From: Clostridiales bacterium
GTDB lineage: Bacteria; Bacillota; Clostridia; Oscillospirales; CAG-382
Reading direction: 5' to 3'
NCBI GenBank assembly: GCA_004553575.1
Contig: SFLA01000001.1
Span: 30,521-94,520 of the forward strand
DNA length: 64,000 nt
Part shown: positions 31,720 through 61,285 of the stretch, piece after piece
Layout: each line of letters starts with the position of its first letter
Position numbering within the stretch: the first letter of the stretch is position 1
Notes under the pieces: generated by a model
What the model was told of the DNA's origin: nothing
Database searches by the model: none
The model's input: only the letters and a program-made list of their open reading frames with translations
Position numbers and translations under genes: made by a program

Positions 31720-31721
31720 GG

Positions 31722-31750: not shown

Positions 31751-31790
31751 GCTTACCGTCAACATGCCTGTTATATCGGGGGTTTATTGC

Positions 31791-32234: not shown

Positions 32235-32237
32235 ACA

Positions 32238-32978: not shown

Positions 32979-33003
32979 GACGTTAAAACTTAAAAGATAT
33001 TAA

Positions 33004-33291
<288 letters not shown>

Positions 33292-33330
33292 TAACTCAAA
33301 GCCGCAATTCCCGAAAGGGGGAAATAACGA

Positions 33331-35895: not shown

Positions 35896-35913
35896 AAGTG
35901 TGGTGAAAACGGC

Positions 35914-36756: not shown

Positions 36757-38432
<1,676 letters not shown>

Positions 38433-45379: not shown

Positions 45380-46078
45380 TTACTTACTACCTTTCTCTTC
45401 TTTCTTTCGGTTTGTATACGCCACAGTCATTGCGGCGAGACGCTTACCGACCTTGCACAGCAACAGTAATCCGCCGAAGATCAGCAGCCAAACCGGCAGC
45501 AGAATCGTAATTTTATATCCGTAACCGGTCACAAAGGTACCGGAAAGCAGATCCATTGCAACGAAAACGAACACGACCGCCGCAAGATACACCGTTACCA
45601 CGAGCTTGCGGGAACGGTATGCGGCTAACCGCATAAGCACCAGCCCGATGACAAGTGTCATTGCAACCGTGCAGTATTTCAGAACAAACGGCACCGGAGC
45701 CGTAAGCCGCAGACCGTCGATTACCGCCGGAGACATATTCCCGAACGCGAGCTTGACCAGATATAATATCGGAACGACCGCCGCGAGCGCATACCAGATA
45801 TACTGAACCGAATCAAGCACCCGTTCTATCGGAGTCTGCCGCGGGATGTTCTGAATAAGCGCACGGCAGAATTCTCGGTAATCGGTACCTATAGCGGACG
45901 AGAACGGCTCGCCGCGATGCTGACACTCGAGCGCCATACCGACAAGATCCGATATCGTCTCCTCGTACGCGACTTCGTTAAGATAATGAGCCTGAAGATA
46001 CACAGCCATACGCCTTATCTCGCGCCTGTTTTCCGCGCTAAGTCTTGACGCTGCCGTCTTCAACTCTCTGTTCGACAT
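45380..46078 (-). CDS. PadR-associated membrane protein (N-terminal helical HAAS/DUF1700-like domain plus multiple TM segments)
   Basis: Soluble helical N-terminus (~85 aa), then about four hydrophobic segments. Overlaps the 3' end of the PadR gene. The family call is tentative. Confidence 0.45.
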   Translation of the reverse strand: MSNRELKTAASRLSAENRREIRRMAVYLQAHYLNEVAYEETISDLVGMALECQHRGEPFSSAIGTDYREFCRALIQNIPRQTPIERVLDSVQYIWYALAAVVPILYLVKLAFGNMSPAVIDGLRLTAPVPFVLKYCTVAMTLVIGLVLMRLAAYRSRKLVVTVYLAAVVFVFVAMDLLSGTFVTGYGYKITILLPVWLLIFGGLLLLCKVGKRLAAMTVAYTNRKKEEKGSK

Positions 46079-46409
46079 GCGGTGCCTCCTTTACGATTAT
46101 TTCCGCGGCAGCCGTATTCAGGTTTATCCAGCAATCCGTGAACTCGTTAAGATACTGCCTGCCGTAATCGGTTATCGTGTAGTATTTGCGCTTGGGCCCG
46201 AGCGGAGACGAACGAAGCTCCGAAGAGATGATGTTTTGCTTTTCCAGCCGGAGCAGCAGGGGATAAATCGTCCCCTCGGAAACGTCCCTGAATCCGCTGC
46301 CGCGCAGATATTCGATTATTTCGTAGCCGTATGTCGTCTCGCGGGAAATGATTTTTAGTATACATCCCTCCAGCGTTCCGCGCATAAGCTGTGACCTGTC
46401 AAAAAGCAT
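46038..46409 (-). CDS. PadR-family transcriptional regulator
   Basis: Winged-helix signature LEGCILKIISRETTYGYEIIEYL....SEGTIYPLLLRLEKQN...KRKYYTIT. ATG 46409 is preceded by an AAGGAGA RBS; ORF-track start 46451 lacks one. Confidence 0.85.
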   Translation of the reverse strand: MLFDRSQLMRGTLEGCILKIISRETTYGYEIIEYLRGSGFRDVSEGTIYPLLLRLEKQNIISSELRSSPLGPKRKYYTITDYGRQYLNEFTDCWINLNTAAAEIIVKEAPHVEQRVEDGSVKT

Positions 46410-46461
46410 TCCCTGTCTCCTTGCCTGCGCATGGGTACTATGCCGTACCAAGTACTGCTAC

Positions 46462-46648: not shown

Positions 46649-48316
46649 TTACTGCTTTGACGAATCCAGCAGCGCTTCCGCGGCGGAAAGCGCTGCGGAT
46701 CCGGGTGATATACCTCCAATAATCCGGGCAAGCTCGTTTATCCGTCCCTCGCGGTCCAGGTTCGTAACCGTGGTTTCGGTTCTTCCGCCGGATTCCCGCT
46801 TTGCAATAAGCATATGAGTTCCGGCGAAGGCGGCTATCTGCGCGGAATGCGTAACGCAGAATACCTGTTCTCCGTCCGAAGCCAGCGAGGCGAGTTTTTT
46901 GCCGATACGGGCGCTGGTCGCGCCGGAGATGCCGGTGTCGATCTCGTCAAAAATCATGGTTCCGACAGCGGAGCCTGACAAAACGCTTTTTACGGCAAGC
47001 ATTATGCGGGAAAGCTCGCCGCCCGAAGCGATACGGGCTACGGGGCGCGGAATCTCGCCCGCATTTGCGGATACAAGAAACTCAACGGCGTCCGCTCCGT
47101 CGGACGAGAAGGGCTTTTCGGTAAACCCGGCAACAAAGCTGACCGACGGCATATCAAGGTCTTTCAGCTCGTCCCGTATGCGCTTTTCCAGATCGGCGGC
47201 CGCGGTTCTGCGGCGTTCGGAAAGCCGCGAGGCAGCAGAAGACAGTTCCGCTTCCTTCTTCTCAAGTTCCTTTTTTATCTCGGCCCGGCGGGAATCGCCG
47301 TTTTGTATGCCCGATATCTCGCGTCCGGCTTCCTCGGCAATCGCAAGCAGCCCCTTTTCGTCGGTGCGGTATTTGCGCTTGAGCGAGTTTATCAGCTGAA
47401 GCCTGCTCTCGACCCGGTCGAGCGCGGCGGCAGGGTCGCCCTCTCCGGGGTCGGTATATGAATACAGCGATTCCGCTATATCCGCAAGCTCTATTCTCGC
47501 CGAATCCAGACGCTCCGCAAGCAATGCGCACTCGGGTACCGCGTCGGCGAGAGACCTGACCTCCCGCAGGGCGGAATCCGCAAGGGACACCGCGGAAATA
47601 TCCGCACCGTAGAGCCGCGAATATGCTTCTCCGCAGCCGGAAATTATACGCTCGCGGTTGGCGAGCAGGCTCCGCTTTGCGGTGAGCTCCTCCTCCTCGC
47701 CCTCGGTTATATGCGCGGATTCTATTTCGTGCAGGCGGTAAGCGAGCATATCCAGCCGCTCGGCGCGGTCGGATTCCGATTCTTCCAGCCTGCGCAGCTC
47801 GTTCTTAAGCGATATATAATCGGAATAAACCCGTGAATACGCCGATTTTTCCGCCTCGTCGCGTGCAAAGGTGTCGAGCATACCCAGATGTGCCGAAACG
47901 TCAGCGAGCTTCATGGTATCCTGCTGTCCGTGTATGTCGATAAGCAGTGACGCGGCGGAGCGCAGAAGCCCGGTCGGCACGGAACGCCCGTTAATCCGCG
48001 CAGTGCTTCGTCCGTCGGCGGTTATCCTGCGCGAAAGCAGCAGGCTTCCGTCGCCGTCCGGCTCTATACCGATACCGGCAAGAGCGGCAACCGCATCTTC
48101 GGTGAGCGCGCCGAAAAAGCCCTCGGCAGCCGCGTAGGCTTCTCCCGTCCGGATAATGCTCCGGTCGGTGCGGGCGCCGCAAAGCAGGGCTATTGAATCG
48201 ATAAGTATACTTTTGCCCGCGCCGGTCTCGCCGGTGAAGACGGTCAGCCCTCCGGACAGATCGAGGTCAAGCGAGCGGAGCAGCGCGACATTCTCGACGT
48301 GCAGCGAAAAGAGCAT
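46649..48316 (-). CDS. recN: DNA repair protein RecN
   Basis: SMC-like. N-terminal Walker A GETGAGKS, long coiled coil, C-terminal SGGELSR signature and DEIDTGISG Walker B. Confidence 0.95.
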   Translation of the reverse strand: MLFSLHVENVALLRSLDLDLSGGLTVFTGETGAGKSILIDSIALLCGARTDRSIIRTGEAYAAAEGFFGALTEDAVAALAGIGIEPDGDGSLLLSRRITADGRSTARINGRSVPTGLLRSAASLLIDIHGQQDTMKLADVSAHLGMLDTFARDEAEKSAYSRVYSDYISLKNELRRLEESESDRAERLDMLAYRLHEIESAHITEGEEEELTAKRSLLANRERIISGCGEAYSRLYGADISAVSLADSALREVRSLADAVPECALLAERLDSARIELADIAESLYSYTDPGEGDPAAALDRVESRLQLINSLKRKYRTDEKGLLAIAEEAGREISGIQNGDSRRAEIKKELEKKEAELSSAASRLSERRRTAAADLEKRIRDELKDLDMPSVSFVAGFTEKPFSSDGADAVEFLVSANAGEIPRPVARIASGGELSRIMLAVKSVLSGSAVGTMIFDEIDTGISGATSARIGKKLASLASDGEQVFCVTHSAQIAAFAGTHMLIAKRESGGRTETTVTNLDREGRINELARIIGGISPGSAALSAAEALLDSSKQ

Positions 48317-48320
48317 TTTA

Positions 48321-48779
48321 TCAGATCGCTCCTATCTGTTCCCTCATCATTTGGCAGATGCGGTCGGCATCTTCCTCGTTTTTGGTAATAAGTACTATCG
48401 TATCGTCACCGGCTATCGACCCGAGTATGCCCTCAAAGCACATAGCATCGATGGTGGCGCAAGCCGCCGACGCCATTGCCACATAGGTGTGAAGCACAAC
48501 GAGATTCATTGCGCTGTCGACGCTCTTTACGGTATCGGCAAGCATCTTTGAAAACTTCAAGGCGATATGCTCGGCGGTCGGCACGGTGGCGGAAACATAG
48601 CGGTAACTCCCTTTTCCGTTTGACGCCTTCACGATCTTCAGCTCGCGTATATCGCGGGATACGGTCGCCTGAGTGCATTCAAAGCCCGACTCCCGCAAAA
48701 GCCGAAGCAGCTCCTCCTGTGTATCGATCTCCCGGGTTCTGATGAGCTCCATGATCTTGGTCTGTCTTTTAAGTTTCAT
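48321..48779 (-). CDS. argR: arginine repressor
   Basis: N-terminal winged helix (QATVSRDIRELK), C-terminal oligomerisation domain with the GTIAGDDT-type motif (GSIAGDDT). Confidence 0.9.
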   Translation of the reverse strand: MKLKRQTKIMELIRTREIDTQEELLRLLRESGFECTQATVSRDIRELKIVKASNGKGSYRYVSATVPTAEHIALKFSKMLADTVKSVDSAMNLVVLHTYVAMASAACATIDAMCFEGILGSIAGDDTIVLITKNEEDADRICQMMREQIGAI

Positions 48780-48790
48780 CGGCCTTCCCC

Positions 48791-49579
48791 TTACAGATTG
48801 AATTTTTTATGTACCACGGAATAGAAGCATCCCGGTTTTATGCGTATAAGCGCCAGCTTTTCCGCACTTCTGCGTATCCGGACGGTGTCATCCGGATAAA
48901 TGTGAACGCACTCGCGCGAATCCAGCGTAAGGCAGGTGGTTCCGCCCTTATGGGCGCGCGCGGTAAGGGTCAGCACCGAATCTGCGGGAAATACTATGGA
49001 TCTCGCCGCCGCGAGACGGTGCGGGCATACGGGAGTGGCGATTATCGCCTCCATACACGGGTCGAGCAGCGGTCCTCCCGCCGAGAGCGAATATGCGGTC
49101 GACCCGGTCGGGGTGGCGCAGATAAGCCCGTCCGCCGAATAACTGCTGACCGGAGCTCCCCCGCAGGAAAGCGTTATATCCACTATCTTGGACACCTCTC
49201 CGCGTGACACGAGCGCTTCGTTGAGCACTGTATGCCGCTCGCTCACACCGTCGGCACGCAGTATCTCGGCGTCCAGCATCATCAGCCCCTCCGTGCGGTA
49301 TTCGCCCGTTTTAAGCCGCGAAAGCAGCCCGATATCCTCAGGCTCGATGTCGTTCAGATATCCGAGTGTGCCGCAGTTGATACCGAGCACCGGAATCCCC
49401 AGGGGAGCCGCCTCGGCAGCCGCTCTCAGTACGGTGCCGTCGCCGCCCACCGATATTATAAGCTCCGGCGCTTCGTCCGAAACGGTAAAGCCCAGGCGCG
49501 AAAGCTCGCGCGCGGCGGCAACGGCAGTCTCCTGCGCGAAAGGCTTTGAGGTGTTTATAAGCAGCTTGACCCGTTCCAT
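48791..49579 (-). CDS. nadK: NAD+ kinase
   Basis: GGDGT motif (SVGGDGTVL), NxGxLGFL-type motif (NCGTLGYL), and ...TPTGSTAYSLSAGGP.... Confidence 0.9.
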   Translation of the reverse strand: MERVKLLINTSKPFAQETAVAAARELSRLGFTVSDEAPELIISVGGDGTVLRAAAEAAPLGIPVLGINCGTLGYLNDIEPEDIGLLSRLKTGEYRTEGLMMLDAEILRADGVSERHTVLNEALVSRGEVSKIVDITLSCGGAPVSSYSADGLICATPTGSTAYSLSAGGPLLDPCMEAIIATPVCPHRLAAARSIVFPADSVLTLTARAHKGGTTCLTLDSRECVHIYPDDTVRIRRSAEKLALIRIKPGCFYSVVHKKFNL

Positions 49580-49584
49580 TTAAG

Positions 49585-50310
49585 TCATACCCTTTCAAAC
49601 AGTGCGAGATATTCGCGGTTTCCGTCCCCTCCCGGGATCGGCGAATCGGCAATGCGGATAAGCGAAAGCCCGTTTTCCGCCGCAGAGAGCGACAGCCGTG
49701 TGATTACGGCGGCGGCAACACTTCCGTCGGGGTCGCGCAGTATACCGCCCTTCCCGATATGCTCCCTGCCCGCCTCGAACTGCGGCTTTACAAGAGATAT
49801 AAAATAGCCTTTTTCAAGCACCCTGGATACTGCGGGATATACCAGCGACTGCGATATGAACGAAAGGTCGGCGGTAACAAGCTGAGGCTCAAACGGCAGA
49901 TCGGAGAGATTAAGATATCTCGCGTTGAAGCCCTCGATAACCGTGACCCTGCCGTCGGCGGCGAGCGAAGGGTCGATCTGACCGCGCCCGACGTCAAGCG
50001 CGCACACCCTCGCCGCTCCGTGCTTAAGAAGGCAGTCCGTAAATCCCCCGGTCGAAGCGCCTATGTCCAGCACCGAAAGCCCCTCCGGCGAAACGCCGAA
50101 CACCTCAAGCGCCCGCTCGAGCTTTTCGCCCGCGCGGGAAACGAAACGGCAGGGGGAAAGCACGGATATCTCCGCGCCCTCGCGTACCTCCTCGCCCGGC
50201 TTGCGTGCGGGCACTCCGTTTACCGTTACCCTTCCCGAAATTATATATTCTCTCGCCTGACTCCGGCTGCGCACACAGCCGGCGGCGACCAGATAATTGT
50301 CTAACCGCAT
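49585..50310 (-). CDS. tlyA: TlyA-family rRNA 2'-O-methyltransferase
   Basis: ATG 50310 (MRLDNYL...). S4-like N-terminus and SAM motif DIGASTGGFTD. ORF-track start 50610 is a stop-free extension into dxs. Confidence 0.9.
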   Translation of the reverse strand: MRLDNYLVAAGCVRSRSQAREYIISGRVTVNGVPARKPGEEVREGAEISVLSPCRFVSRAGEKLERALEVFGVSPEGLSVLDIGASTGGFTDCLLKHGAARVCALDVGRGQIDPSLAADGRVTVIEGFNARYLNLSDLPFEPQLVTADLSFISQSLVYPAVSRVLEKGYFISLVKPQFEAGREHIGKGGILRDPDGSVAAAVITRLSLSAAENGLSLIRIADSPIPGGDGNREYLALFERV

Positions 50311-52133
50311 ATTTTTCTGAGTATCGAATCGGCGTCGATTCCGGCGGCGGCGCGCAGCTCGGCAATCGTGCCCTGCGGCAAAAAGCCGTCGGCGGCAAGA
50401 ATCTCGACCCGGCGGCGGGTTCGGTCGGCGGCGCAGAGCGCCGCTATCTCTTCGCCGATACCGCCGCTCTTCATACCCTCCTCGGCGACCACGACAAGCG
50501 GCGCGGAGCGGATAAGGCCGGAAATGTCCGGCAGCGGCTTTATTTTTATAAGCCTTATAAGGCGTATGTTCATACCGTTGGCACGGGCGGTGACGCACGC
50601 CTTTTCGCACTCGGAGGTCTCGCTCCCATAGGTCACCACCGCGGCATTGGGAAACTCTCCGGAACCGTAATCGGTAACGGCATAGTCGCCGTCCGAAACG
50701 GATTTACCCTCCGGAACCGCTCCGCGCGGGTAGCGGACGGCGCAAGGAGCGTCCATATCCAGCGCAGCCTTAAGACAAACGCGAAGCTCGGATTCGGTGT
50801 ACGGCGAAAACACGGTAAGCCCGGGCACAGCGTTCATAAACGAAACGTCAAACATTCCGTGATGGGTGGGCCCGTCCGCGCCGACAATTCCGGCGCGGTC
50901 TATTGCAAGCACGACCGGAAGCGACTGCAGTGCGACGTCGTGTATAAGTTGATCGTAGGCGCGCTGTGCAAACGTGGAATACAGAGCCAGCACCGGCTTT
51001 TTTCCGCCGGCGGCAAGTCCCGCCGAAAAGGTCATGGCGTGCTCCTCGGCAATGCCCACATCGAAGAATCTTTCGGGAAACCTGGAAGCAAAGCCGACAA
51101 GTCCGGTGCCGTCCTTCATGGCCGCGGTCACCGCGCAGATACGGTCGTCGAGCTCGGCGAGCCTGCAAAGCTCGTCGCCGAATACATCGGAACAGCTCCG
51201 TGCGCCGTTGATTATATTGCCGGTTTCTATATCAAAGCCGGATACGCCGTGGTAAAGGTCGGGCTCGCGCTCGGCGGGAGGATATCCCTCGCCCTTGCGG
51301 GTGCATATGTGTACGACCGAGCAGACCCCGTCGTTTTTCGCCTCGCGAAGTACGTCCTCGATCTTTGCAATGTCTTTACCGTCTATCGGTCCGAAGTAAT
51401 GAAGCCCGAGCTGCTCGAAGAAATTCTCGCGTACGAAGACTCTCTTTACACAATTCTTCAGCCTGCGCGCGCCCTTAACGAGATACTTTCCGATTCCGGG
51501 CACCGCTCCGAACAGCTTCTCCGTAAAGCTCTTGAACCTGAAATACCGTTTGCTGGTGCGTATCCTGGCGAGATGCCGTGAATTGCCGCCGACATTGCGG
51601 GAAATCGACATTCCGTTATCGTTAAGCACGATAATCAGATTGTCGTACTTTGCGCAGTTATTAAGCGCCTCGTAAGCCATTCCGCCGGTAAGCGCTCCGT
51701 CTCCTATCACCGCGACGGTGCAGGAATCGCTGCCCGACAGCTTGTCCGCGGCGGCAAAGCCCACCGCCGCCGACACCGACGTGGAGGCGTGTCCGCTCCC
51801 GAAGGCGTCGCAATCGCTCTCCGACCGCTTCTGAAAACCGGATATTCCGCCGTAGGTGCGCAGCGCAGCCGCCATTCCGTCCTTCCTGCCGGTGATTATT
51901 TTATGTACGTAGCTCTGATGGCTAACATCGAAAATAATTCTGTCATGAGGACAGTCGAACACGCGGTGCAGTGCCAGAGTAAGCTCTACCACTCCCAGAT
52001 TCGAGGCGAGATGCCCTCCGCGCTCCGACGTAACTTTTATAAGAAATTCGCGTATCTCCGCCGAAAGCACCCTGAGCTGCTCCGGCGACAGAGCTTTTAC
52101 GTCCTCGGGAGAATTAACATTTTCGAGTATCAA
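50301..52133 (-). CDS. dxs: 1-deoxy-D-xylulose-5-phosphate synthase
   Basis: 610 aa. ThDP motif GDGALTGGMAYEALN and the transketolase-like domain order. Confidence 0.95.
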   Translation of the reverse strand: MILENVNSPEDVKALSPEQLRVLSAEIREFLIKVTSERGGHLASNLGVVELTLALHRVFDCPHDRIIFDVSHQSYVHKIITGRKDGMAAALRTYGGISGFQKRSESDCDAFGSGHASTSVSAAVGFAAADKLSGSDSCTVAVIGDGALTGGMAYEALNNCAKYDNLIIVLNDNGMSISRNVGGNSRHLARIRTSKRYFRFKSFTEKLFGAVPGIGKYLVKGARRLKNCVKRVFVRENFFEQLGLHYFGPIDGKDIAKIEDVLREAKNDGVCSVVHICTRKGEGYPPAEREPDLYHGVSGFDIETGNIINGARSCSDVFGDELCRLAELDDRICAVTAAMKDGTGLVGFASRFPERFFDVGIAEEHAMTFSAGLAAGGKKPVLALYSTFAQRAYDQLIHDVALQSLPVVLAIDRAGIVGADGPTHHGMFDVSFMNAVPGLTVFSPYTESELRVCLKAALDMDAPCAVRYPRGAVPEGKSVSDGDYAVTDYGSGEFPNAAVVTYGSETSECEKACVTARANGMNIRLIRLIKIKPLPDISGLIRSAPLVVVAEEGMKSGGIGEEIAALCAADRTRRRVEILAADGFLPQGTIAELRAAAGIDADSILRKICG

Positions 52134-52146: not shown

Positions 52147-52707
52147 TCAGCTCTTCTTTTTTCTGCCGAATACGCAGAGCACGCGCGCGCAGAAGTGGGT
52201 TATTTCGCGGCTTTTCTCCATTGCAATACGCTTGCCGAGCGCCTTTCCGCCGACGGTTACCGAAGCGACCATAGAGGTCATGGCGAGAGTAAGCCAGAAC
52301 GCCGCGGCGGCGGAAAGCTCGGAAAACAGCACGGCGGCGATCGATGCGGCGGACGCTCCGCTCACGACTCCGCAAATATCCCCGACAATATCGTTACAGA
52401 ATGACGCGACCTTTTCGGCGTTGGTTATAAGCCAAACCGCCTTTTTGCCGGCAGGGTCCTTCTTCGCCGCCATCGCGTTGAAGGCGGACATCTCCGCCGT
52501 TGCAACCGCAAGGCCGAACACATCGAACAGTATTCCCAGCAACACAAACAAGAGCAGCACGATGAGTGCTGCCCACACAGGTAGATCCTCGAGCGTCTCT
52601 CCGGATAGAATAGACAGCAACGCGGTCATGATAAAACTGAACAGAAACGCGAAGCCGATCCACAGCCGACGGGCGCGGCGCCGGACTTTTTCTTTGTCGT
52701 TTTTCAT
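52147..52707 (-). CDS. oapA: four-TM DUF21-like membrane protein in the OapA (OLE-associated protein A) position
   Basis: ATG 52707 (MKNDKEK...). Four hydrophobic helices. Lies directly between the long noncoding gap and dxs, as oapA does in OLE loci. Confidence 0.65.
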   Translation of the reverse strand: MKNDKEKVRRRARRLWIGFAFLFSFIMTALLSILSGETLEDLPVWAALIVLLLFVLLGILFDVFGLAVATAEMSAFNAMAAKKDPAGKKAVWLITNAEKVASFCNDIVGDICGVVSGASAASIAAVLFSELSAAAAFWLTLAMTSMVASVTVGGKALGKRIAMEKSREITHFCARVLCVFGRKKKS

Positions 52708-52729
52708 TAAAAAATATCCCCGTTTGAAA

Positions 52730-53360
52730 TAAAGCGAATGAAAAAATGGCGGCACGGAGCGTAGACCTTGCGGCTTACGGTCAAGTAGGGTTTCCCCGCG
52801 GCCTGCTTCTCGTCGCCGATAAAGCGGTTCCCCATTAAAGGCCGGGTCGGAGCGTTACCGCATCCGCGACTTGATTGCCTATGAGTCCGCACTGTAATCC
52901 GTCCCATGCCAGTTCCCCCAGCGGGAACAACAGTCTAGGAGATTTCCTCAATAGCAGCAGAACATTCTTTTATCCTCTTTTGCAGACATGATTTCAAGCG
53001 CTATTATTCGGGACAGTTAGCTACACTCCCCCGACCTGAACGCTATCCGCCATGCCCACTCAAGGCCGGCTACATCTATCCACAGCATCAGTCTATGGTC
53101 TGTACCGCATGATAGGTCTAATCTTAATCCCGTAGCCCCGCGCCAGTATAACCGCGGTCGGCCACAGGAAAAAGCCTCCAAGGAAAGAGGGACGCTTGCC
53201 CCATGCCATTGGGGTCGCCCGCAGTCCTATATCTCCCAGCACCCACCCTGCACTGGGCGTACAAAGCAAGCACCAGAAGCTTCATCGATTTGCCGTTCGA
53301 CGTATTTTTAGGCACGCCTTCAAAAATGCAGTGCTAACTAGAATACTGCGCCATTCCGAT
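52730..53360 (-). ncRNA. ole: probable OLE (ornate, large, extremophilic) RNA; boundaries approximate
   Basis: 745-nt gap (52708-53452) without a credible ORF inside an otherwise tightly packed operon. Dense GC-rich hairpins on the minus strand. Context ispA-gap-4TM protein-dxs-tlyA-nadK-argR-recN matches the published OLE context. No covariance-model search was run. Confidence 0.65.
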
Positions 53361-53452
53361 TATTAATATACCATACTTCTGCATAAAATCAAGGGGATAG
53401 GCAAAAAAATATTCAGCATATCCCCGCTATATTCAGTATTTATCGTATTTTT

Positions 53453-54316
53453 TCACTTTTTTCTCACCGCCGTCGAGGCGCACAGCTCTATAAGGCGGTC
53501 CCTGCCTTCGCAGTCCGGCAGAGGCGAAAGCAGCTTCTGCGCACGGGCGCAGAGAGCGCTCACCGCATCGCGCGTTTTTTTCTCGCCGAGAAGGGTCACG
53601 AAGGTCGCCTTATGATCCCGCTCGTCCTTCCCGCGCGACTTCCCGGTTTCGGCCGTTCCGTCGCAATCCAAAAGATCGTCGGTCATCTGGAACAGCAGTC
53701 CGTAGACGTCGCCGAAGGACTCGGCAACATCGGTCGGGTACCCCGCGGCAAGGCTCCCGAGCATGCACGAAAGCGAAAGCAGGCAGCCGGTCTTAAGCGA
53801 CTGAAGCCGTATAAGCTCGCGCTCGGTCGCGGTAAACACGCTTGAAAGCAGGTCTGTCTGCTGTCCCGCCATCATTCCGCATGCCTTTCGGGCGGTAAGC
53901 GCGGCGGCGGCGGAATTTACGGAATCCGTCATATACGGGTTGGACGCGGCGGTCTCGCACCCCTTAAGCAGCAGAGTGTCCCCCGCAAGTATCGCGGTCG
54001 CCACGCCGTACACCATGTGATTGGTCGGCTTCCCTCGGCGAAGCACGTCGTTGTCCATCGCCGGAAGGTCGTCATGTATCAGCGACGAGGTATGTATCAT
54101 CTCGACCGCGGCGGCATACGGAAGCGCCGGAGAAAAATCGCTTTTTCCGGAGCAGATCATATAAAACTCCGCGCAGAGATACGGCCGTATCCGCTTTCCG
54201 CCGGACAGCGCCGAATACCTCATCGCCTCGTAAAGCTTGGCGTAGGGCGCATCCTTCGGGCAGGAAAGCAGCCTGTCAAGCTCGGCGTTTACCGCCGAAG
54301 CAACCTTATTTATCAT
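53453..54316 (-). CDS. ispA: (2E,6E)-farnesyl diphosphate synthase / polyprenyl synthetase
   Basis: First Asp-rich motif LIHDDLPAMDND and second FQMTDDLLD. Confidence 0.9.
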   Translation of the reverse strand: MINKVASAVNAELDRLLSCPKDAPYAKLYEAMRYSALSGGKRIRPYLCAEFYMICSGKSDFSPALPYAAAVEMIHTSSLIHDDLPAMDNDVLRRGKPTNHMVYGVATAILAGDTLLLKGCETAASNPYMTDSVNSAAAALTARKACGMMAGQQTDLLSSVFTATERELIRLQSLKTGCLLSLSCMLGSLAAGYPTDVAESFGDVYGLLFQMTDDLLDCDGTAETGKSRGKDERDHKATFVTLLGEKKTRDAVSALCARAQKLLSPLPDCEGRDRLIELCASTAVRKK

Positions 54317-54533
54317 TGAAGTCTTCCTCTTTTACTCCGGTTGCGGTTTCGGTGAGTATTTTCACGCGCTGCTCCGCGGAGTCCAGCTTTTCCGTGCAGT
54401 ACTTCACCAGCGAAGTGCCCTCCTCGAACAGCTCGATGGACTTATCAAGCTCAAGCGATCCGCTTTCCAGCCCCCGCACTATCTCCGCAAGCCGCGCAAG
54501 CGCCTGCTCAAAGGTAAGCTCGTTTTCGTTCAT
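54306..54533 (-). CDS. xseB: exodeoxyribonuclease VII small subunit
   Basis: 75-aa helical protein (FEQALARLAEIVRGLESG...LELDKSIELFEEG) following xseA with a 4-nt overlap. Confidence 0.9.
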   Translation of the reverse strand: MNENELTFEQALARLAEIVRGLESGSLELDKSIELFEEGTSLVKYCTEKLDSAEQRVKILTETATGVKEEDFNDK

Positions 54534-55723
54534 ATCTTTTCCGCCTCCATGGTTCCGTCGGACAGTCTGAGCGAAAACCTCTCGCCCGACGGTATGTCGT
54601 CAACGCTTTTTATAAGCTTCCCGTCTTTCCCGAACGCCGCCCCGTATCCGCGTGCAAGTATCGCAAGCGGATTAAGCGGAGCAAGCGCCGCGCTTTTTGT
54701 TTCAAGCGCTCCGCGTGCGCGCATAACCGCGGTTTCCGCGGCGCGCACCAGCTTGTCGTCCAGTCTTGCTACCGCCATGCGCTTTTCATCAACCGCCGTG
54801 CGCGGGGTTGACATTGCGCGGGAGGATGCAAGAAGCTCCAGCCGGTGCCTGTGTCCGGCGAGCACGCTTCCGAGCAGCGAGCAGAGACGGGTCTGCACGT
54901 TGCGGAGCTGACGCGCCGTATCCTTCGAATCCGGAACGGCTATCTCTGCGGCGGCGGACGGCGTGGGCGCCCGGACATCCGCCACAAAATCGGCTATGGT
55001 AAAATCGGTCTCGTGACCGACCGCAGAGATTACGGGTATACGGCAGTCGTAGATGCGCCGTGCGAGCTTCTCGTCGTTAAACGCCCACAGATCCTCGATC
55101 GAACCGCCCCCGCGGCCGATGATAATAAGATCGCATTTGCCCTCGCGGTCAAAGAAGTCCACCGCGCGTATAAGATTCTGCGCCGCGGATTCGCCCTGAA
55201 CGAGCGAAGGATACAGCCGTATCTCGGCGGCGGGGAAACGGCGGCGGGTAACGGTTATCATATCCCGCACGGCCGCTCCGGTCGGCGCCGTGATTATTCC
55301 GATATGCAGCGGAATCTTCGGGAGCGGCTTCTTATGCGCGTCGTCGAACAGACCCTCCGCCGCCAGTCTCTTTTTAAGCTGCTCGAACGCGACATACAGC
55401 GACCCCACTCCGTCGGGTATCATTTCGGAAACGTAGAGCTGATACTTTCCCTGCGCGGCGTAAAGGGATATCCGCCCGCGGCAGATCACCTTCATGCCGT
55501 CGGACGGCACGAAAGCCAGCCGGGACAGCTCGCCCCGGAACATGACCGACGGGAGCAGACTGCCCTCGTCCTTGAGCGTAAAGAACAGATGCCCGGTGCG
55601 GTTGGGAGAATAGTTGCTTATTTCGCCCTTCACCCAAACGTCGCGCAGCGGCGGTACGTTCTCCAGAATCTCTTTTATAAAGCTGTTAAGCTGGGTTACG
55701 GTTATTGCCGATGAACTGTCCAT
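54530..55723 (-). CDS. xseA: exodeoxyribonuclease VII large subunit
   Basis: N-terminal OB fold (VWVKGEISNY...GHLFFTLKD), then a catalytic region and coiled coil. 397 aa. Confidence 0.9.
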   Translation of the reverse strand: MDSSSAITVTQLNSFIKEILENVPPLRDVWVKGEISNYSPNRTGHLFFTLKDEGSLLPSVMFRGELSRLAFVPSDGMKVICRGRISLYAAQGKYQLYVSEMIPDGVGSLYVAFEQLKKRLAAEGLFDDAHKKPLPKIPLHIGIITAPTGAAVRDMITVTRRRFPAAEIRLYPSLVQGESAAQNLIRAVDFFDREGKCDLIIIGRGGGSIEDLWAFNDEKLARRIYDCRIPVISAVGHETDFTIADFVADVRAPTPSAAAEIAVPDSKDTARQLRNVQTRLCSLLGSVLAGHRHRLELLASSRAMSTPRTAVDEKRMAVARLDDKLVRAAETAVMRARGALETKSAALAPLNPLAILARGYGAAFGKDGKLIKSVDDIPSGERFSLRLSDGTMEAEKI

Positions 55724-55728
55724 TCCGA

Positions 55729-56130
55729 TCAGCCGTTTCTATCGGCGGCGATACGCCCGAGCACGCCGTTTACGAAGGCGGGCGCTTTGTCGTCGTCGTA
55801 TCTGCGGGCAAGCTCGATCGCCTCGTTAACGATTATCTCGGTGTCGGTTCCCTCTCCGAACAGCAGCTCAAACGAAGCGAGCCGGAGCACCGCCAGCGAT
55901 ACCCGCGATATGCGGGATATCGACCAGTTGTCCGCCGCGGCGGATATACGCACGTCGATCTCCTTCTCGTGCGCACACGCACCCTCGAACAGGCTCTTTG
56001 CGAACGCCGAATACTTCTCCTCGCGCATTTCCTTCGCGCGCTCCATTATCTCCTCCGGAGCTTCTTCCGGTGAAAACCCGTGCTCGAAAAGGAGACAGAG
56101 CGCCGCTTCGCGTGATTCACGTCTTGTCAT
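55729..56130 (-). CDS. nusB: transcription antitermination factor NusB
   Basis: ATG 56130 (MTRRESREAALCLLFE...). Conserved ...NEAIELARRY....FVNGVLG near the C-terminus. Confidence 0.9.
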   Translation of the reverse strand: MTRRESREAALCLLFEHGFSPEEAPEEIMERAKEMREEKYSAFAKSLFEGACAHEKEIDVRISAAADNWSISRISRVSLAVLRLASFELLFGEGTDTEIIVNEAIELARRYDDDKAPAFVNGVLGRIAADRNG

Positions 56131-56160
56131 AAAAACTCTCCGGTCATAATTTTTCATTTT

Positions 56161-56189
56161 ATTATATCATTCCGCGCCGAAAAATGCAA
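56161..56189 (-). promoter_or_regulatory. sigma-70-type promoter of the nusB...recN operon
   Basis: On the minus strand: TTGCAT (56189-56184), 17-nt spacer, TATAAT (56166-56161). Confidence 0.55.
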
Positions 56190-56201
56190 CCGGAAAATAT
56201 A

Positions 56202-56229
56202 TAAAAACCGCCCCGCAGAAGCGGGGCGG
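56202..56229 (-). terminator. rho-independent terminator after the S-component gene
   Basis: Minus strand reads CCGCCCCGC-ttct-GCGGGGCGG followed by TTTTTAT. Confidence 0.8.
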
Positions 56230-56236
56230 ACGCGGA

Positions 56237-56761
56237 TTACACATGAGCCTTGAGCCTGCCGAGCAGCTTTATAAGCGGCGGCGCGAGAAAGCCGCAGGCG
56301 AAGTTTCCGGCGGCGTGTATCGCATCGAACGGAAGTCCGGCGGCTATCCAAGCCAGAGTTTGCGAAAGGCCGAATCCCGCAAGAATCGCCTGCGCGGGCG
56401 CGTAAAGCGTACCGAACGCGAGCCCGAACAGCCCGGACACGAGCGGGCAGAAAATATAAGCCCTTTTCCCTTCGAACAGACTGCGGGGCAGCAGCATGAC
56501 CGCCCCCCAAAGCACCGTCCAGACATAAAGATACGGTATCCACCATATGCCGAACCCGTCGAACAGACCGCATAAAAACACGAAGACATATACCGGCGCG
56601 AGCGCCTTCACACGGTATACGACGGTGAACGCCACGATGAACGTTCCGATAAGATGTATGTTCGGCAGCATCTGCATAACCAGCTTCGAAACATACATCA
56701 GAGCGCCGAACATGGCAAACAACACATATTCGGCAATGCGGTTATTCCGCTTTGAGCTCAT
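56237..56761 (-). CDS. ECF-transporter S-component-like membrane protein (possible cobalamin-specific, CbrT-like)
   Basis: 174 aa with about six hydrophobic helices. Overlaps the DUF4430 gene by 20 nt and lies downstream of a putative B12 riboswitch. Confidence 0.5.
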   Translation of the reverse strand: MSSKRNNRIAEYVLFAMFGALMYVSKLVMQMLPNIHLIGTFIVAFTVVYRVKALAPVYVFVFLCGLFDGFGIWWIPYLYVWTVLWGAVMLLPRSLFEGKRAYIFCPLVSGLFGLAFGTLYAPAQAILAGFGLSQTLAWIAAGLPFDAIHAAGNFACGFLAPPLIKLLGRLKAHV

Positions 56762-57197
56762 ACACCTTTGCGGAATCTATGTTTTCACCGTCAACGCCGG
56801 TCATGGCATATTCGCCGTCGATATAGAACGCCCAGTACATTCCGTCGGTATCGTAATCAAGCGTCATTCCGTTTACCGTTTTTACGTACAGGCCGTAATC
56901 GCCCTCCTCGCCGGCAATAAGTCCGGCGGCGACCAGCGCGTCGCCGAGCACGGCTTCGTCGGTGGATACGGTAACGGTTATAGTCCTGTCCTCGGCGGTT
57001 ATCTTAAGTGTAAATACGGTGCCGCCCTCCCCGACCGAAACGTCGGAGTTGTATACGGCGGAAGCCCATATCCCGGATTCCTGCACACTCTCGTTTCCGT
57101 TCGATGTTTCCGGAGTCTCCGGAGCGGTGCAGGCACAGAAGAGCATCGTGACGGTGAGTATCGCAGCAAGCAGCAGCGAAAGCTTTTTGAGATTCAT
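56742..57197 (-). CDS. DUF4430-domain lipoprotein (transcobalamin-like fold family)
   Basis: ATG 57197 with an AAAGGAGAAAA RBS. Lipobox MLFCAC. C-terminal ...GLYVKTVNGMTLDYDTDGMYWAFYIDGEYAMTGVD... is typical of DUF4430. Confidence 0.6.
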   Translation of the reverse strand: MNLKKLSLLLAAILTVTMLFCACTAPETPETSNGNESVQESGIWASAVYNSDVSVGEGGTVFTLKITAEDRTITVTVSTDEAVLGDALVAAGLIAGEEGDYGLYVKTVNGMTLDYDTDGMYWAFYIDGEYAMTGVDGENIDSAKVYELKAE

Positions 57198-57214
57198 TTT
57201 TTGTTTTCTCCTTT

Positions 57215-57480
57215 GTTTTGTTTTTTTGCGCGGAGAAAAGGCGCCCGGTCTCCCCCACGCCGCGGAATGCGCTTCCCGTCCCCGCGCCGGCGGGACAAGG
57301 ACAAACACGGGCGGCGATCTGCCCGGGAGCCGGGCGTGTTTCACGGCATCGCAGGTATTCCGGCTGTCACGGCAATGGCTGTTGCGGCGGGATCACACCG
57401 CGCTTTCCCTGCGGTCGTACGGGGCGCCGGCTGCGCCTTCTCCGTACGGCTCTGTTATAACAAATCGAATGCCGTCGATT
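57215..57480 (-). promoter_or_regulatory. probable cobalamin riboswitch (translational, RBS-sequestering)
   Basis: Minus strand carries cAGGGAAagcgcGGTGtgATCCCGCcGCAAC, then a B12-box-like AGCCGGAATACCTGC (57365-57351). A TTTTCTCC segment is complementary to the GGAGAAAA RBS of the downstream gene. Confidence 0.55.
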
Positions 57481-57499
57481 TTCTCTTGCCACGGAGGTG

Positions 57500-57528
57500 A
57501 TTATACCTTCTTTTTTTCCGCAAGTCAA
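57500..57528 (-). promoter_or_regulatory. sigma-70-type promoter upstream of the riboswitch
   Basis: On the minus strand: TTGACT (57528-57523), 17-nt spacer, TATAAT (57505-57500). Confidence 0.55.
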
Positions 57529-57558
57529 TCCGGGCGGGCGGAATTTTCCGGCTTCCTC

Positions 57559-57587
57559 TTGATTAATTGAAGGATATGTATTATAAT
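57559..57587 (+). promoter_or_regulatory. sigma-70-type promoter for gpmI
   Basis: TTGATT (57559-57564), 17-nt spacer, TATAAT (57582-57587). GGGAGA RBS before ATG 57640. Confidence 0.55.
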
Positions 57588-57639
57588 ATTTCGAATAATG
57601 GAGTTCTGTATCCAAATAATCAATACGGGAGAATGAAAT

Positions 57640-59274
57640 ATGACAGACGTACGCACCGGAAAAGCAAAAACGCCGGTAGTAACTATAGTAATGGACGGCG
57701 TCGGGCTCTGCCCGCGCACCGAGGGAAATGCGGTCGCGGAGGCCGCGACTCCCACGCTCGATATGCTTATGGAGAAATACCCCACCTTCAGCCTTAAGGC
57801 TCACGGAACCGCGGTCGGGCTTCCCACCGACGACGACATGGGCAACAGCGAGGTCGGCCACAATGCCCTGGGCTCCGGCCAGATATTCGCGCAGGGCGCA
57901 AAGCTGGTTTCAAATGCGATCAATTCCGGCAGGCTGTTCGAATCCGACACCTGGAACGAGCTTACGGGTAATGTTAAAAAGACCGGCGGAACCCTTCACT
58001 TCATAGGGCTGTTTTCCGACGGCAACGTGCATTCGCACATAGACCATCTCCGTGCGATGATTGCCGAATGTAAAAAAGAAGGGGTCAAAAACGTAAGAAT
58101 ACATGTCCTGCTTGACGGAAGAGACGTCGGCGAGACGAGCGCGCTCGAATATATCGACCCGTTCGAGGAGTTCCTGTCCTCGCTGCGCGGAGACGGATTC
58201 GACGCCCGTATAGCGTCCGGAGGCGGAAGAATGGTAATAACCATGGACCGCTACGAAGCGAACTGGGGCATGGTGGAGCTCGGCTGGAAAACTCATGTGC
58301 TCGGCGAGGGCAGAGCCTTTGCTTCGGCTCACGAAGCGGTCGAGACCTACCGCGCCGAGACCGGAAAGATCGACCAGGACCTCCCTCCCTTCGTAATTGC
58401 CGAGAACGGCGCTCCGATAGGCAGAATAGAGGACGGCGACAGCGTTATATTCTATAATTTCCGCGGCGACAGAGCGATCGAGATTTCGCGCGCGTTTGAC
58501 GATAAGAATTTCGATAAGTTCGACCGTGTGAGATACCCTTCGGTGGTGTACGCAGGAATGCTTGAGTACGACGGCGACACGCATATCCCGAGCCGGTATC
58601 TCGTGTCCCCGCCCGAGATTTCGAACACGCTCGGCGAATATCTGGTAAGCCTGGGGCTTTCCCAGTACGCGCTGTCCGAAACGCAGAAGTACGGACATGT
58701 CACCTACTTCTGGAACGGAAACCGCAGCGGAAAGTTTTCGGAATCGCTCGAAACCTATGTTGAGATACCGTCGGATACGGTACCGTTCGAGCAGCGCCCG
58801 TGGATGAAGTGCGCCGAGATAACCGATGCTCTTATAGCCGCAATCGAGAGCGGCAGATACGATTTTCTTAGGGTGAATTTCCCCAACGGCGATATGGTCG
58901 GACACACCGGGTCGCTCCGCGCCACCGAGATTGCAATGGAAGCGCTCGACATCTGTCTTGCCCGTATATTAAAAGCCGTAGACAAGGCGGGCGCGGTGGC
59001 GATAATCACCGCCGACCACGGAAATGCCGACGAAATGTACGAATACAACAAAAAGAAGGGCTGCGTGTCGCTCAATGCCGACGGCACCCCCAAGGCAAAG
59101 ACCAGCCATACGCTCAACCCCGTGCCCTGCATTATATACGACAACACGGGCAGAGACGACTATGTCTGCGTGCCGGGCAGCTACGGACTCGCCAACGTTG
59201 CGGCAACCGTGGTGACACTGCTCGGATTCGAACCGAAGTCCATGTGGGAAAAGCCGATGGTACAGCCCAAATAA
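57640..59274 (+). CDS. gpmI: 2,3-bisphosphoglycerate-independent phosphoglycerate mutase
   Basis: 544 aa. N-terminal ...IVMDGVG... and DDDMGNSEVGHNALGSG (catalytic Ser), C-terminal ...ITADHGNAD.... Confidence 0.9.
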   Translation: MTDVRTGKAKTPVVTIVMDGVGLCPRTEGNAVAEAATPTLDMLMEKYPTFSLKAHGTAVGLPTDDDMGNSEVGHNALGSGQIFAQGAKLVSNAINSGRLFESDTWNELTGNVKKTGGTLHFIGLFSDGNVHSHIDHLRAMIAECKKEGVKNVRIHVLLDGRDVGETSALEYIDPFEEFLSSLRGDGFDARIASGGGRMVITMDRYEANWGMVELGWKTHVLGEGRAFASAHEAVETYRAETGKIDQDLPPFVIAENGAPIGRIEDGDSVIFYNFRGDRAIEISRAFDDKNFDKFDRVRYPSVVYAGMLEYDGDTHIPSRYLVSPPEISNTLGEYLVSLGLSQYALSETQKYGHVTYFWNGNRSGKFSESLETYVEIPSDTVPFEQRPWMKCAEITDALIAAIESGRYDFLRVNFPNGDMVGHTGSLRATEIAMEALDICLARILKAVDKAGAVAIITADHGNADEMYEYNKKKGCVSLNADGTPKAKTSHTLNPVPCIIYDNTGRDDYVCVPGSYGLANVAATVVTLLGFEPKSMWEKPMVQPK

Positions 59275-59298
59275 ACCGCTATACAAAGGATTGCCGAC

Positions 59299-60009
59299 AT
59301 GATAATCGATATCATACAAACCGTATTGAGCGGCGGCGACGTCGTTCCCCTTATACTGATGCTGCTGCTTATGGTTCCTCTGCTGCTCATATCGCTCAGT
59401 GTGCACGAGGCGGCGCACGGCTGGATGGCGCACAAATGCGGGGACGATACCGCATATATCAGCGGAAGAGTGTCGCTGAACCCTCTGGCACATCTCGATC
59501 CGATCGGCTTTCTTATGCTCATAACCGTCGGATTCGGCTGGGCGAAGCCGGTTCCGGTCAACTACCGCTATCTGCGCAACCCCAAGCGCGACATCGCGCT
59601 GGTATCGCTGGCGGGGCCGGTGTCCAATATCATACTCTGCTTTTTGTGCACCGGCGTTTATGTTGCGGCCGAGCGGTTTCTCGGCGGGACGGTCGTCGGC
59701 ATGGTGCTTCGCCTGGCGTTTATGATTTCGGCAACCCTTAACGCCGGACTTGCCGTATTCAACCTTATTCCTCTGCCCCCGCTTGACGGATCGAAGGTGC
59801 TGTCCTGTCTGCTTCCCCCGAACACTGCGGCGAAATATCTTATGCTCGAGCGCTACTTCCGCTATATCATGCTCGCGCTGATATTCGCTTCGTATGTTCC
59901 GGTGCTCGGCAGGATCGCCGACATTATATGGACTCCGATATCGCTGGTCAGGCAGTTGCTGACGGGAGGGTTCTATTCCCTGTTCTCGTTTATCTTCGGT
60001 CTGTTCTGA
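59299..60009 (+). CDS. site-2 protease-family (M50) membrane metalloprotease
   Basis: HEAAHGWMAH (HExxH) inside a TM helix, a later NLIPLPPLDGSK motif, multiple TM segments. Confidence 0.8.
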   Translation: MIIDIIQTVLSGGDVVPLILMLLLMVPLLLISLSVHEAAHGWMAHKCGDDTAYISGRVSLNPLAHLDPIGFLMLITVGFGWAKPVPVNYRYLRNPKRDIALVSLAGPVSNIILCFLCTGVYVAAERFLGGTVVGMVLRLAFMISATLNAGLAVFNLIPLPPLDGSKVLSCLLPPNTAAKYLMLERYFRYIMLALIFASYVPVLGRIADIIWTPISLVRQLLTGGFYSLFSFIFGLF

Positions 60010-60011
60010 TT

Positions 60012-60728
60012 ATGGAGGAAAAAATTGTCCGTATAGAGCAGTACGAGGGTCCGCTCGACCTGCTGCTCGCGCTTATACAGAAGCATAAAATAGATATACT
60101 CGATATACCCATTGCCGATATATGTACCCAGTACATGGAGTATATAGACACCCTGCGGGAGCATGCAATGGAGGTCACCGGCGAGTTTATAGTAATGGGC
60201 GCACAGCTTATGCTTATAAAATCGCGGATGCTGCTTCCGCGCGACGAGGAGGACGAAGATCCGCGGCGCGAGCTGGTGGACGCGCTGCTCGAGCACCGCA
60301 GGGCGGTACTGGCGGCACAGCTCCTGCGCGAGCGCGCCGAGACATACTTCGACCGCTTTACAAAAGAACCCGACGAGCTCCCGCCCGAGAGCTATTCGCG
60401 TCTGCACCCGGTTTCGCTGCTTACCGAGGCGTTCGCACGGCTGGCAAGCAGAATGTCGGAAGCAGAACTGCCCGAGCCCGAGCTTTTTGAAAAGCTGGAA
60501 TCCGAGCGGTATTTTACGGTGGACGAGAAGGTCCTGCACATTTCAAAAAGGCTTTCGCGCCTGCGCAGCTGCCGGTTTTCGGTAATGTTCGACGATTGCC
60601 GCAGCCGGGGCGAGATAGTTGCTACCTTTCTCGCACTGCTCGAAATGGTTAAAAGCGGGTCGGTGTCGGTCCTGCGCGAGGGCGACGAGACCTATCTCGA
60701 AATGCAACCCGAGGAGATGCAGATATGA
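60012..60728 (+). CDS. scpA: segregation and condensation protein A
   Basis: ATG 60012 (MEEKIVRIEQYEGPLDLLLALIQKHKIDILDIPIA...). ORF-track start 59928 overlaps the protease gene. Confidence 0.9.
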   Translation: MEEKIVRIEQYEGPLDLLLALIQKHKIDILDIPIADICTQYMEYIDTLREHAMEVTGEFIVMGAQLMLIKSRMLLPRDEEDEDPRRELVDALLEHRRAVLAAQLLRERAETYFDRFTKEPDELPPESYSRLHPVSLLTEAFARLASRMSEAELPEPELFEKLESERYFTVDEKVLHISKRLSRLRSCRFSVMFDDCRSRGEIVATFLALLEMVKSGSVSVLREGDETYLEMQPEEMQI

Positions 60729-61285
60729 ATATTTCCGCGCTTACTGCCTTGCTCGAGGCGGTGCTGTTCGCCTGCGGAAGTCCGGTCACCGACGAAAGAC
60801 TTTCCGAGGTGCTGGAGGTATCGCGGACGGATATAGCCGCGGCGGCGGAGGAGCTTAAGAAAAAAACCGATTCTCCCGACAGCGGCATACAGCTTATATA
60901 CCTTGACGGCGCTTACCAGCTTTGTACCAAAAGCTGCACCGCCGATGTGGTGCGTAAGGCTCTCGAGCTCCGGAAAACGCCTCCGCTGTCAAAGGCGGCG
61001 CTCGAGGTGCTTGCGATAGTCGCATACAATCAGCCGGTAACCCGTTCCTTTATCGAAACGGTGCGCGGAGTGGATTCGGCATATGTGGTAGGCTCTCTGC
61101 TCGATAAGGGTCTGCTCTGCGAAAAGGGAGTGCTTGACGCGCCCGGCAAACCGACTCTGCTCGGCACCGGCGAGGGATTCCTGCGCTGCTTCGGACTTGA
61201 AAGTCTTTCGGATTTGCCCGACGCTTCGCTTCTGTGCGAATCCGCCGAAACGGTCGGCAGTCTTATCCCGGAGGACGAACAGTGA
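60725..61285 (+). CDS. scpB: segregation and condensation protein B
   Basis: ATGA overlap with scpA. Tandem winged-helix pattern (ALLEAVLFACGSPV...; LSKAALEVLAIVAYNQPVTRSFIETVRG). Confidence 0.9.
   Translation: MNISALTALLEAVLFACGSPVTDERLSEVLEVSRTDIAAAAEELKKKTDSPDSGIQLIYLDGAYQLCTKSCTADVVRKALELRKTPPLSKAALEVLAIVAYNQPVTRSFIETVRGVDSAYVVGSLLDKGLLCEKGVLDAPGKPTLLGTGEGFLRCFGLESLSDLPDASLLCESAETVGSLIPEDEQ

Follow-up and report, generated by a model that had tools for sequence, protein, structure and literature searches.

The stretch of contig SFLA01000001.1 analysed here, 64,000 nucleotides (nt) long and referred to throughout as the window, comes from a metagenome-assembled genome (MAG) of an uncultured gut member of the Clostridia, phylum Bacillota, whose closest loci are found in Clostridia, Eubacteriales and Oscillospiraceae gut MAGs. 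On its minus strand lies the gene run nusB-xseA-xseB-ispA-X-dxs-tlyA-nadK-argR-recN, with a 745-nt gap between ispA and X. An earlier note, made from the letters alone, had placed the OLE (ornate, large, extremophilic) RNA in this gap and had taken X for its protein partner OapA, and that identification has been borne out by a match to the RNA model, a covarying fold and the hallmarks of OapA in X. It can now be stated with a probability of about 0.97 that the gap encodes a full-length OLE RNA of ~611-641 nt and that the downstream gene encodes OapA.

Rechecking of the coordinates confirmed that every junction of the ten-gene run except ispA-X is an overlap or a gap of at most 13 nt: a gap of 5 nt for nusB-xseA, overlaps of 4 nt for xseA-xseB and 11 nt for xseB-ispA, a gap of 13 nt for X-dxs, an overlap of 10 nt for dxs-tlyA, and gaps of 5, 11 and 4 nt for tlyA-nadK, nadK-argR and argR-recN, respectively. 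With the last base of the ispA stop codon at 53453 and X starting with ATG at 52707, positions 52708-53452 are left between them. Two open reading frames (ORFs) of 63 and 66 amino acids (aa) had been reported in the gap, and both exist (53124-53315 and 52707-52907); further ORFs occur on the minus strand (54 and 58 aa) and on the plus strand (56 aa), none being longer than 66 aa. The names proposed for all nine flanking genes were upheld by NCBIfam and/or Pfam models. Of these, dxs, tlyA, nadK, argR and recN (46649-52133) are the downstream genes typical of ole loci, and together with ispA they match the published ole gene context (PMC12265935). The genes, named by NCBIfam/Pfam models where nothing else is given, are as follows.

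55729-56157, minus strand: nusB
54530-55723, minus strand: xseA
54306-54533, minus strand: xseB
53453-54316, minus strand: ispA, farnesyl diphosphate synthase, the upstream neighbour of ole (NCBIfam FPPsyn, 223 bits; Pfam polyprenyl_synt, 1e-48)
52147-52707, minus strand: X, taken as oapA, 186 aa, with GGGGA 9 nt before the ATG
50301-52133, minus strand: dxs
ATG at 50310, ending at 49585, minus strand: tlyA
48791-49579, minus strand: nadK
48321-48779, minus strand: argR
46649-48316, minus strand: recN

The RNA encoded in the ispA-X gap

Scanning of the whole window with Rfam 15 gave OLE (RF01071) as the sole family above threshold, with no tRNA and no second Rfam family reaching it anywhere in the 64 kb. 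The match, 641 nt at 53370-52730 on the minus strand, scored 399.3 bits (E 8.3e-114) where the gathering score is 50, and spans model positions 1-616 of 616, so that it is not truncated. The covariance-model search recommended in the earlier note thus returned a full-length hit; the guess of an RNA of ~630 nt is close to the 641 nt of the Rfam match and to the 611 nt of the core bounded by helix P1, and the statement that the element is not a new class holds. Helices P7 (53174-53124) and P8 (53115-53076) are both present, P9 is long, and there are no large deletions relative to the RF01071 model. The presence of P7, P8 and a long P9 separates full-length OLE from variants 1 and 2 (PMC11332333), and the window copy is therefore of the full-length type.

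52730-53370, minus strand: OLE RNA, full Rfam extent (RF01071 match)
52745-53355, minus strand: structured core of the OLE RNA bounded by P1, 611 nt (P1 covariation)
53299-53318, minus strand: P4 hairpin with A-rich loop CCUAAAAAU, the loop invariant in the 40-copy alignment
53226-53288, minus strand: P5/P5.1 hairpin, with loop GCCCA at 53258-53254, flanked by the strands of a putative OapC kink-turn (k-turn)
53199-53214, minus strand: P6.1 hairpin with loop AAUGGCAU; 100% paired, four of five pairs covarying, loop invariant
53076-53174, minus strand: P7 and P8 (Rfam match; covariation helices 7 and 8)
52973-53066, minus strand: long P9 arm, with self-complementary apex UAGCUA at 53023-53018
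52847-52867, minus strand: P13 hairpin, OapB site by signature, with bulged U at 52862, three base pairs, and a GUAA (GNRA) tetraloop at 52858-52855
52813-52816, minus strand: P14.1 GCGA tetraloop, weak second OapB site by signature

The minus strand of the gap folds with z = -4.0, none of 20 shuffled sequences being as stable, whereas the plus strand gives z = -1.07. Among the model base pairs having residues on both sides in the window copy, 138 of 154 are canonical, and the transcribed Rfam alignment reproduces the window sequence exactly. Covariation was evaluated in a set comprising the window copy and 39 related OLE copies, aligned with MAFFT by sequence alone and unfitted to the model, with the Rfam structure projected onto the alignment through the window row; 3' partners slid by 1-3 columns, and 500 column shuffles, served as controls. 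Standard pairs occupied 86.8% of cells as against 36-46% in the slid controls, changes on both sides were seen in 120 of 154 pairs (54-77 in slid controls), the covariation score was 0.432 (0.09-0.12), and no column shuffle attained any of the observed measures. Across the 40 sequences, 119 columns are invariant and ~110 nearly so. Scanning of columns that are unpaired in Rfam revealed the terminal helix P1, which joins 53355-53350 (AAUGGC) with 52750-52745 (GCCAUU), is paired in 97.5% of cells (slid controls, 9-60%) and has changed on both sides in five of its six pairs. A long-range P2/P3-like helix of CAGU..CUAG with CUAGACUG is 99.7% paired and nearly invariant. Alignment to relatives, also suggested beforehand, thus finds the gap sequence both conserved and covarying. 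Four local helices quoted at that stage fared unevenly: CCCCA/UGGGG is the P6.1 hairpin and CCGCG/CGCGG the apex of P7, whereas CCCAG..CUGGG would tie up the conserved P5.1 loop GCCCA in base pairs, and GACC..GGUC lies outside the consensus.

The loops that bridge OLE dimers all have their counterparts in the window, as sequence signatures: CCUAAAAAU, GCCCA, AAUGGCAU and UAGCUA, the first three invariant or nearly so. In cryo-electron microscopy (cryo-EM) models the A-rich loop of P4 is a dimer contact, and the P6.1 loop kisses the P5.1 loop of the second RNA (PMC12265935). The apical palindrome of P9 switches across lineages, taking the forms GGCC, AGCU, CAGCUG, GGCGCC and GGGCCC, and a GGCC/AGCU/GAUC switch at this apex has already been reported (PMC12286853); the pattern fits a kissing loop that is symmetric between the two RNAs of the homodimer. 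A generic test of the apex for its longest palindrome gave no information (shuffles matched the observed length 36% of the time on average), and the argument for a P9 dimer contact draws instead on the fixed apical position and the published covariation (PMC12286853).

Signatures of OapB binding are likewise present. The P13 bulge and GNRA loop and the P14.1 GCGA loop are the determinants of OapB binding (PMC7936274). The OapC k-turn, located between J4a/5 and J5/6, consists of a C helix, a 3-nt bulge and tandem sheared G·A pairs (PMC9723947); in the window it is atypical, and its agreement with the consensus is doubtful. The 5' strand UC-GAU-GAAG (53288-53280) is conserved, and the 3' strand reads AUAUAGG (53232-53226) where the consensus is UUAAGG; the A beside GG is kept and would give the G·A pair next to the bulge. 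The eight closest species (L001-L008) have the 5' strand unchanged and a 3' strand of AGUGGA or AAUGGA, in which U or G stands beside the GG of the C helix, where the sheared G·A pair requires an A. From these sequences, constraint on OapC binding may be relaxed in the L001-L008 clade.

Two transcription signals precede the RNA.

53393-53425, minus strand: hairpin GGGGAUA-n19-UAUCCCC, then UUGAUUUUAU, adjoining the -35 box (inspection, folding)
53365-53392, minus strand: predicted sigma-70-type ole promoter, TTGATT, 16-nt spacer, TGg, TATATT, with a predicted start at ~53358, 2-3 nt before P1

Both had been described in the earlier note and were found where it had put them. The hairpin after the ispA stop has a loop longer than 8 nt, for which reason a simple terminator scan did not list it; transcripts of nusB-ispA may be weakly terminated there. 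Stronger terminator hairpins stand at the equivalent place in some relatives (L001, L004, L036). The TTGATT-16-TATATT element has in addition a TG extended -10, and its position is conserved: TTGnnn, a 16-17-nt spacer and TGnTATAAT, ending 13-16 nt before the invariant GCAGUAU, were seen in ~33 of 39 related loci, the position of the boxes being kept even where the surrounding sequence has diverged. In Halalkalibacterium (Bacillus) halodurans, OLE is transcribed at a high level from its own proximal promoter, with 5' ends at the start of P1 (PMC3413148), and the predicted window element corresponds to that promoter. Six U in a row come after P1 in the window. This run is not conserved in relatives, and read-through into oapA is for that reason judged likely, if unproven.

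Protein X, searched against one genome per species, gave 80 loci, all of uncultured Bacillota (Clostridia, Eubacteriales, Oscillospiraceae, Ruminococcus, some Bacilli and Halanaerobiales), the best at 73-78% protein identity. The Rfam scan was extended to 40 of these, and in all 40 an OLE match of 226-492 bits lies upstream of the X homologue on the same strand, over a range of 32-78% protein identity. The window locus is itself near-identical in four other assemblies, and 259 indexed blocks of public assemblies contain the identical OapA protein; strain-level copies (L081-L084) show two single-nucleotide polymorphisms in OLE and are too alike to inform on structure. One of these, from an NCBI MAG, has ten Ns and clustered mismatches in P14/P14.1 (L081:2880-2905, ~52790-52830 in the window), which most probably arose in scaffolding or assembly and do not reflect true variation.

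Several related loci depart from the usual arrangement. In three of the closest sister species the distance from ole to oapA is ~1.6-1.7 kb (L002:1328-3000, L005:1361-3000, L006:779-2396), as against 22 nt in the window. The L002 insert contains an ORF for a membrane-like protein of 157 aa and another of 238 aa with a weak match to the IS200/Y1 transposase (PF01797, 20 bits, E 6.6e-4), and peptide motifs that recur in several frames of the insert suggest REP-like repeats. Inserts of 0.3-0.55 kb without a clear gene separate ole and oapA in L001, L003, L004 and L010. A Bacilli MAG has a short OLE of 488 nt and 226 bits that resembles published variant 2 (L071:2511-2998); L033 and L038 have lost the distal P9 arm with its palindrome and have a long insertion in P8, and most of P7 is missing from L026. 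In a Clostridiales isolate genome, a cyclic di-AMP (c-di-AMP) riboswitch (RF00379, 91 bits) is found ~1.3 kb upstream of OLE (L069:830-957).

Protein X and the surrounding genes

The correct start of X is the ATG at 52707, giving 186 aa, and not the GTG at 52755, as the homologues begin MKN(I/D)KEK and the GTG-started ORF would overlap P1. Published OapA proteins have four transmembrane (TM) helices, basic clusters, a DxxxD motif that is lacking in CNNM domains and a distant CNNM-like fold, and are encoded directly downstream of ole (PMC11332333, PMC12265935). Comparison of X with this description, one of the checks that had been recommended, found these hallmarks present. Four hydrophobic segments (residues 17-35, 46-64, 107-129 and 134-152) are flanked by an N-terminus of net charge +6 (KEKVRRRARR) and a C-terminus of +7, and the DxxxD motif is D106-I-V-G-D110, encoded at 52378-52392. 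The block FCNDIVGD that contains it does not vary among 26 OLE-linked homologues, whose identity goes down to 30%. Pfam PF01595 (CNNM) matches X at 20 bits (E 5.7e-4), under the cut-off of 28.4; such a sub-threshold match is the published behaviour of OapA (PMC11332333). No CBS, CorC or other further domain was found within the 186 aa. A further trait of OapA is the lack of a proline that is conserved in CNNM domains; the family alignments of X show no invariant proline.

Modeling of X with AlphaFold2 (32 sequences, database proteins) gave an all-helical structure with a pLDDT of 87.7 and a pTM of 0.76. The top four PDB matches of this model in Foldseek are TM domains of CNNM/CorB/CorC proteins (7m1t, 7m1u, 7cfg), with TM-scores up to 0.52 (query) and 0.60 (target), and 7M1U has been reported as the top structural match of H. 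halodurans OapA (PMC11332333). The description of X as a four-helix, DUF21-like membrane protein thus agrees with its hydrophobic segments, its sub-threshold PF01595 match and its predicted CNNM-like fold, and on its sequence, its modelled structure and its linkage to OLE X is identified as OapA.

Upstream of nusB (56154-57640) are two overlapping ORFs without a family match (56154-56573 and 56237-56761), followed by the gene of a DUF4430 protein (56742-57344, minus strand). An Asp23-family gene often precedes nusB in Bacillota; none was found at 56154-57640. After recN there is a gap of 197 nt, then the gene of a PadR-family regulator and a membrane-protein ORF without a Pfam match (46038-46451 and 45380-46078), and the recN-containing operon probably ends at 46649. 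Elsewhere in the window (6379-13689, 19218-29536, 31620-38432 and 57640-61285) genes were named from their translations, few of them confirmed by Pfam. These include mutS-mutL-tgt, proS, gpmI and scpA-scpB, an F-type ATP synthase operon whose atpI and atpC were confirmed by Pfam, and a capsule/exopolysaccharide cluster with two Wzz/tyrosine-kinase-like genes, a PHP-type phosphatase gene and a CapD-like gene, preceded by an S24 peptidase gene.

Proposed particle and alternative readings

Taken together with work in other species, these features outline how the locus may operate. Most of the OLE RNA would come from its own extended -10 promoter, with a start 2-3 nt ahead of P1, as position and conservation indicate, with some read-through possible from nusB-ispA and into oapA-dxs. 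By extension from other species, two OLE RNAs would dimerise through the A-rich loop of P4, the kissing loops of P5.1 and P6.1 and the self-complementary apex of P9; the RNA would be bound by OapA dimers and kept by them at the cell membrane, or possibly across it; and OapB would dock on the GNRA hairpin of P13, with OapC and bS21 as further partners. The OLE particle is needed under stress from short-chain alcohols, cold, excess Mg2+ and poor carbon sources (PMC3413148, PMC10898510, PMC12265935, PMC12286853). The best guess, in keeping with the published view, is that it would act as a membrane-embedded sensor or regulator tied to Mg2+ and membrane homeostasis via the CNNM-like OapA.

Nothing counts against membership in the OLE family. 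The weak points lie elsewhere. The Foldseek E-values are weak (0.026-1.2), and phmmer and an OapA profile hidden Markov model, run against all PDB sequences, found no meaningful relative; either no OapA structure has been deposited or such a structure is beyond the reach of sequence comparison. The k-turn has a 3' strand that deviates from the consensus: it is one nucleotide too long, and its U, which makes the second pair A·U, stands where the consensus has A or G. In a non-exhaustive look no oapB-like (KOW) or oapC-like (L7Ae) gene was noticed among the gene calls of the window. Expression, stability, dimerisation, membrane localisation and function are, moreover, extrapolated from other species.

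It could be, in line with some of these points, that the OLE RNA is genuine but its particle has been reduced in this lineage, OapC and perhaps other proteins no longer binding, as in the variant OLEs of genome-reduced gut clades. The atypical k-turn strand of the window, the U or G that replaces the required A in L001-L008 and the fact that no L7Ae-type or KOW-type gene was noticed in the 64 kb would agree with such a reduction. The window copy, however, keeps the critical G·A pair, and its P7, P8, long P9, P13 bulge with GNRA loop and P14.1 GCGA loop are those of the full-length type (PMC11332333); oapB and oapC are normally unlinked to ole, so that their absence from one window is uninformative. 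A reduced particle is thus considered unlikely. Slightly less likely again is a more specific proposal, that a gut Clostridia lineage which is not genome-reduced has dropped the OapC/k-turn interaction and uncoupled ole and oapA transcriptionally, as could be read from the atypical k-turn of the window, the replaced A in eight sister species and the IS200/RAYT-like insertions in three. If true, the lineage would show, as a natural experiment, which partners a full-length OLE RNA can do without.

A second alternative holds that the structured region is a long cis-acting leader, riboswitch-like or an attenuator, that controls oapA-dxs and is not a stand-alone stable RNA. In favour of this, oapA starts only 22-37 nt further downstream on the same strand, the six-U run follows P1, and OLE is co-transcribed with neighbouring genes in B. 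halodurans (PMC3413148). Yet an insertion of ~1.7 kb separates ole from oapA in three sister species, showing that the two need no close coupling in cis, relatives do not keep the U run, and the OLE of the model organism is a single, very stable and abundant RNA that acts with proteins in trans (PMC3413148, PMC9723947). On these three counts a cis-regulatory leader was rejected as very improbable. A truncated or variant OLE was also rejected, with the full model covered and P7, P8 and the long P9 present. Lastly, a decayed protein-coding gene between ispA and X, for which only the short ORFs of 54-66 aa could speak, was dismissed with next to no doubt, the gap being unlike a decayed gene in its full-length match to the RNA covariance model (E 8e-114), in substitutions over 40 lineages that keep base pairs and not codons, in fold stability limited to one strand, and in spacing and sequence conserved down to loop nucleotides.

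The identification of a full-length OLE RNA with its OapA partner therefore stands, and the locus is one already known in kind, an ordinary member of the OLE class. OLE is among the largest and best-conserved bacterial non-coding RNAs without a known biochemical function, and any copy of it marks an interesting locus; surveys have listed 2,822 OLE genes across Bacillota (PMC11332333). Hosts of OLE are typically anaerobes or extremophiles of that phylum, and the window lineage belongs to it as well. Apart from its atypical k-turn, the window copy matches the published family in every testable respect (fold, partner, neighbourhood, promoter placement and site signatures), and hence raises no new question, nor does anything in the window help to resolve the biochemical activity of the RNA. 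Every feature examined is already published, among them the P9 palindrome of AGCU type, the bulge and GNRA loop of P13 and the proximal promoter; family, partner, neighbourhood and promoter arrangement are likewise on record. The class itself is intriguing, but this copy brings nothing new to it.

The practical value lies in annotation; the locus also shows that a full-length OLE/OapA pair belongs to a gut anaerobe present in many public assemblies. Public gene calls are either empty over the RNA or contain a spurious ORF of 41-42 aa, which in L082-L084 falls inside the 3' part of OLE (L082:2873-3001; L083 and L084:2876-3001; ~52707-52835 in the window), and the RNA itself appears to be unannotated in these assemblies. 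Public labels of OapA homologues are absent, or read hypothetical, CorB or hemolysin-like.

Comparison with known systems

The experimental model for OLE and OapA is H. halodurans C-125, an alkaliphilic Bacillus, whereas the window host is an uncultured anaerobic gut member of the Clostridia (Oscillospiraceae-like MAGs). Common to the two are the Rfam family and fold, an oapA with DxxxD immediately downstream, isoprenoid, DNA-repair, nadK and argR genes nearby, a proximal promoter that starts the RNA at P1 (a predicted one in the window), the P13 bulge and GNRA loop for OapB, and the GCGA loop of P14.1. They differ at the P9 apex, which is UAGCUA in the window and GGCC in H. halodurans, and in the 3' strand of the k-turn, which is one nucleotide longer in the window; the window copy is known from its sequence alone.

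The OLE RNAs of Clostridium acetobutylicum and C. botulinum, resolved by cryo-EM as homodimers (PMC12286853, PMC12265935), have all of their dimer-bridge loops in common with the window copy. At 641 nt the latter exceeds their 577 nt, the extra length lying in insertions within P7, P8 and the junction that precedes P10, and it differs from them in its AGCU type of palindrome, a variant already listed (PMC12286853). For the protein, the predicted fold of OapA is closest to the TM domain of the MpfA/CorB/CorC Mg2+ transporters of the CNNM family (7M1T, 7M1U, 7CFG), from which OapA differs in having no CBS-pair or CorC domain, four TM helices instead of three, and the DxxxD motif (PMC11332333). 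Variant 1 (TANB77) and variant 2 (RF39) OLE RNAs (PMC11332333) share with the window copy their uncultured gut Bacillota hosts and their origin from metagenomes only but, unlike either variant, the window RNA keeps P7, P8, the long P9 arm and the OapB site.

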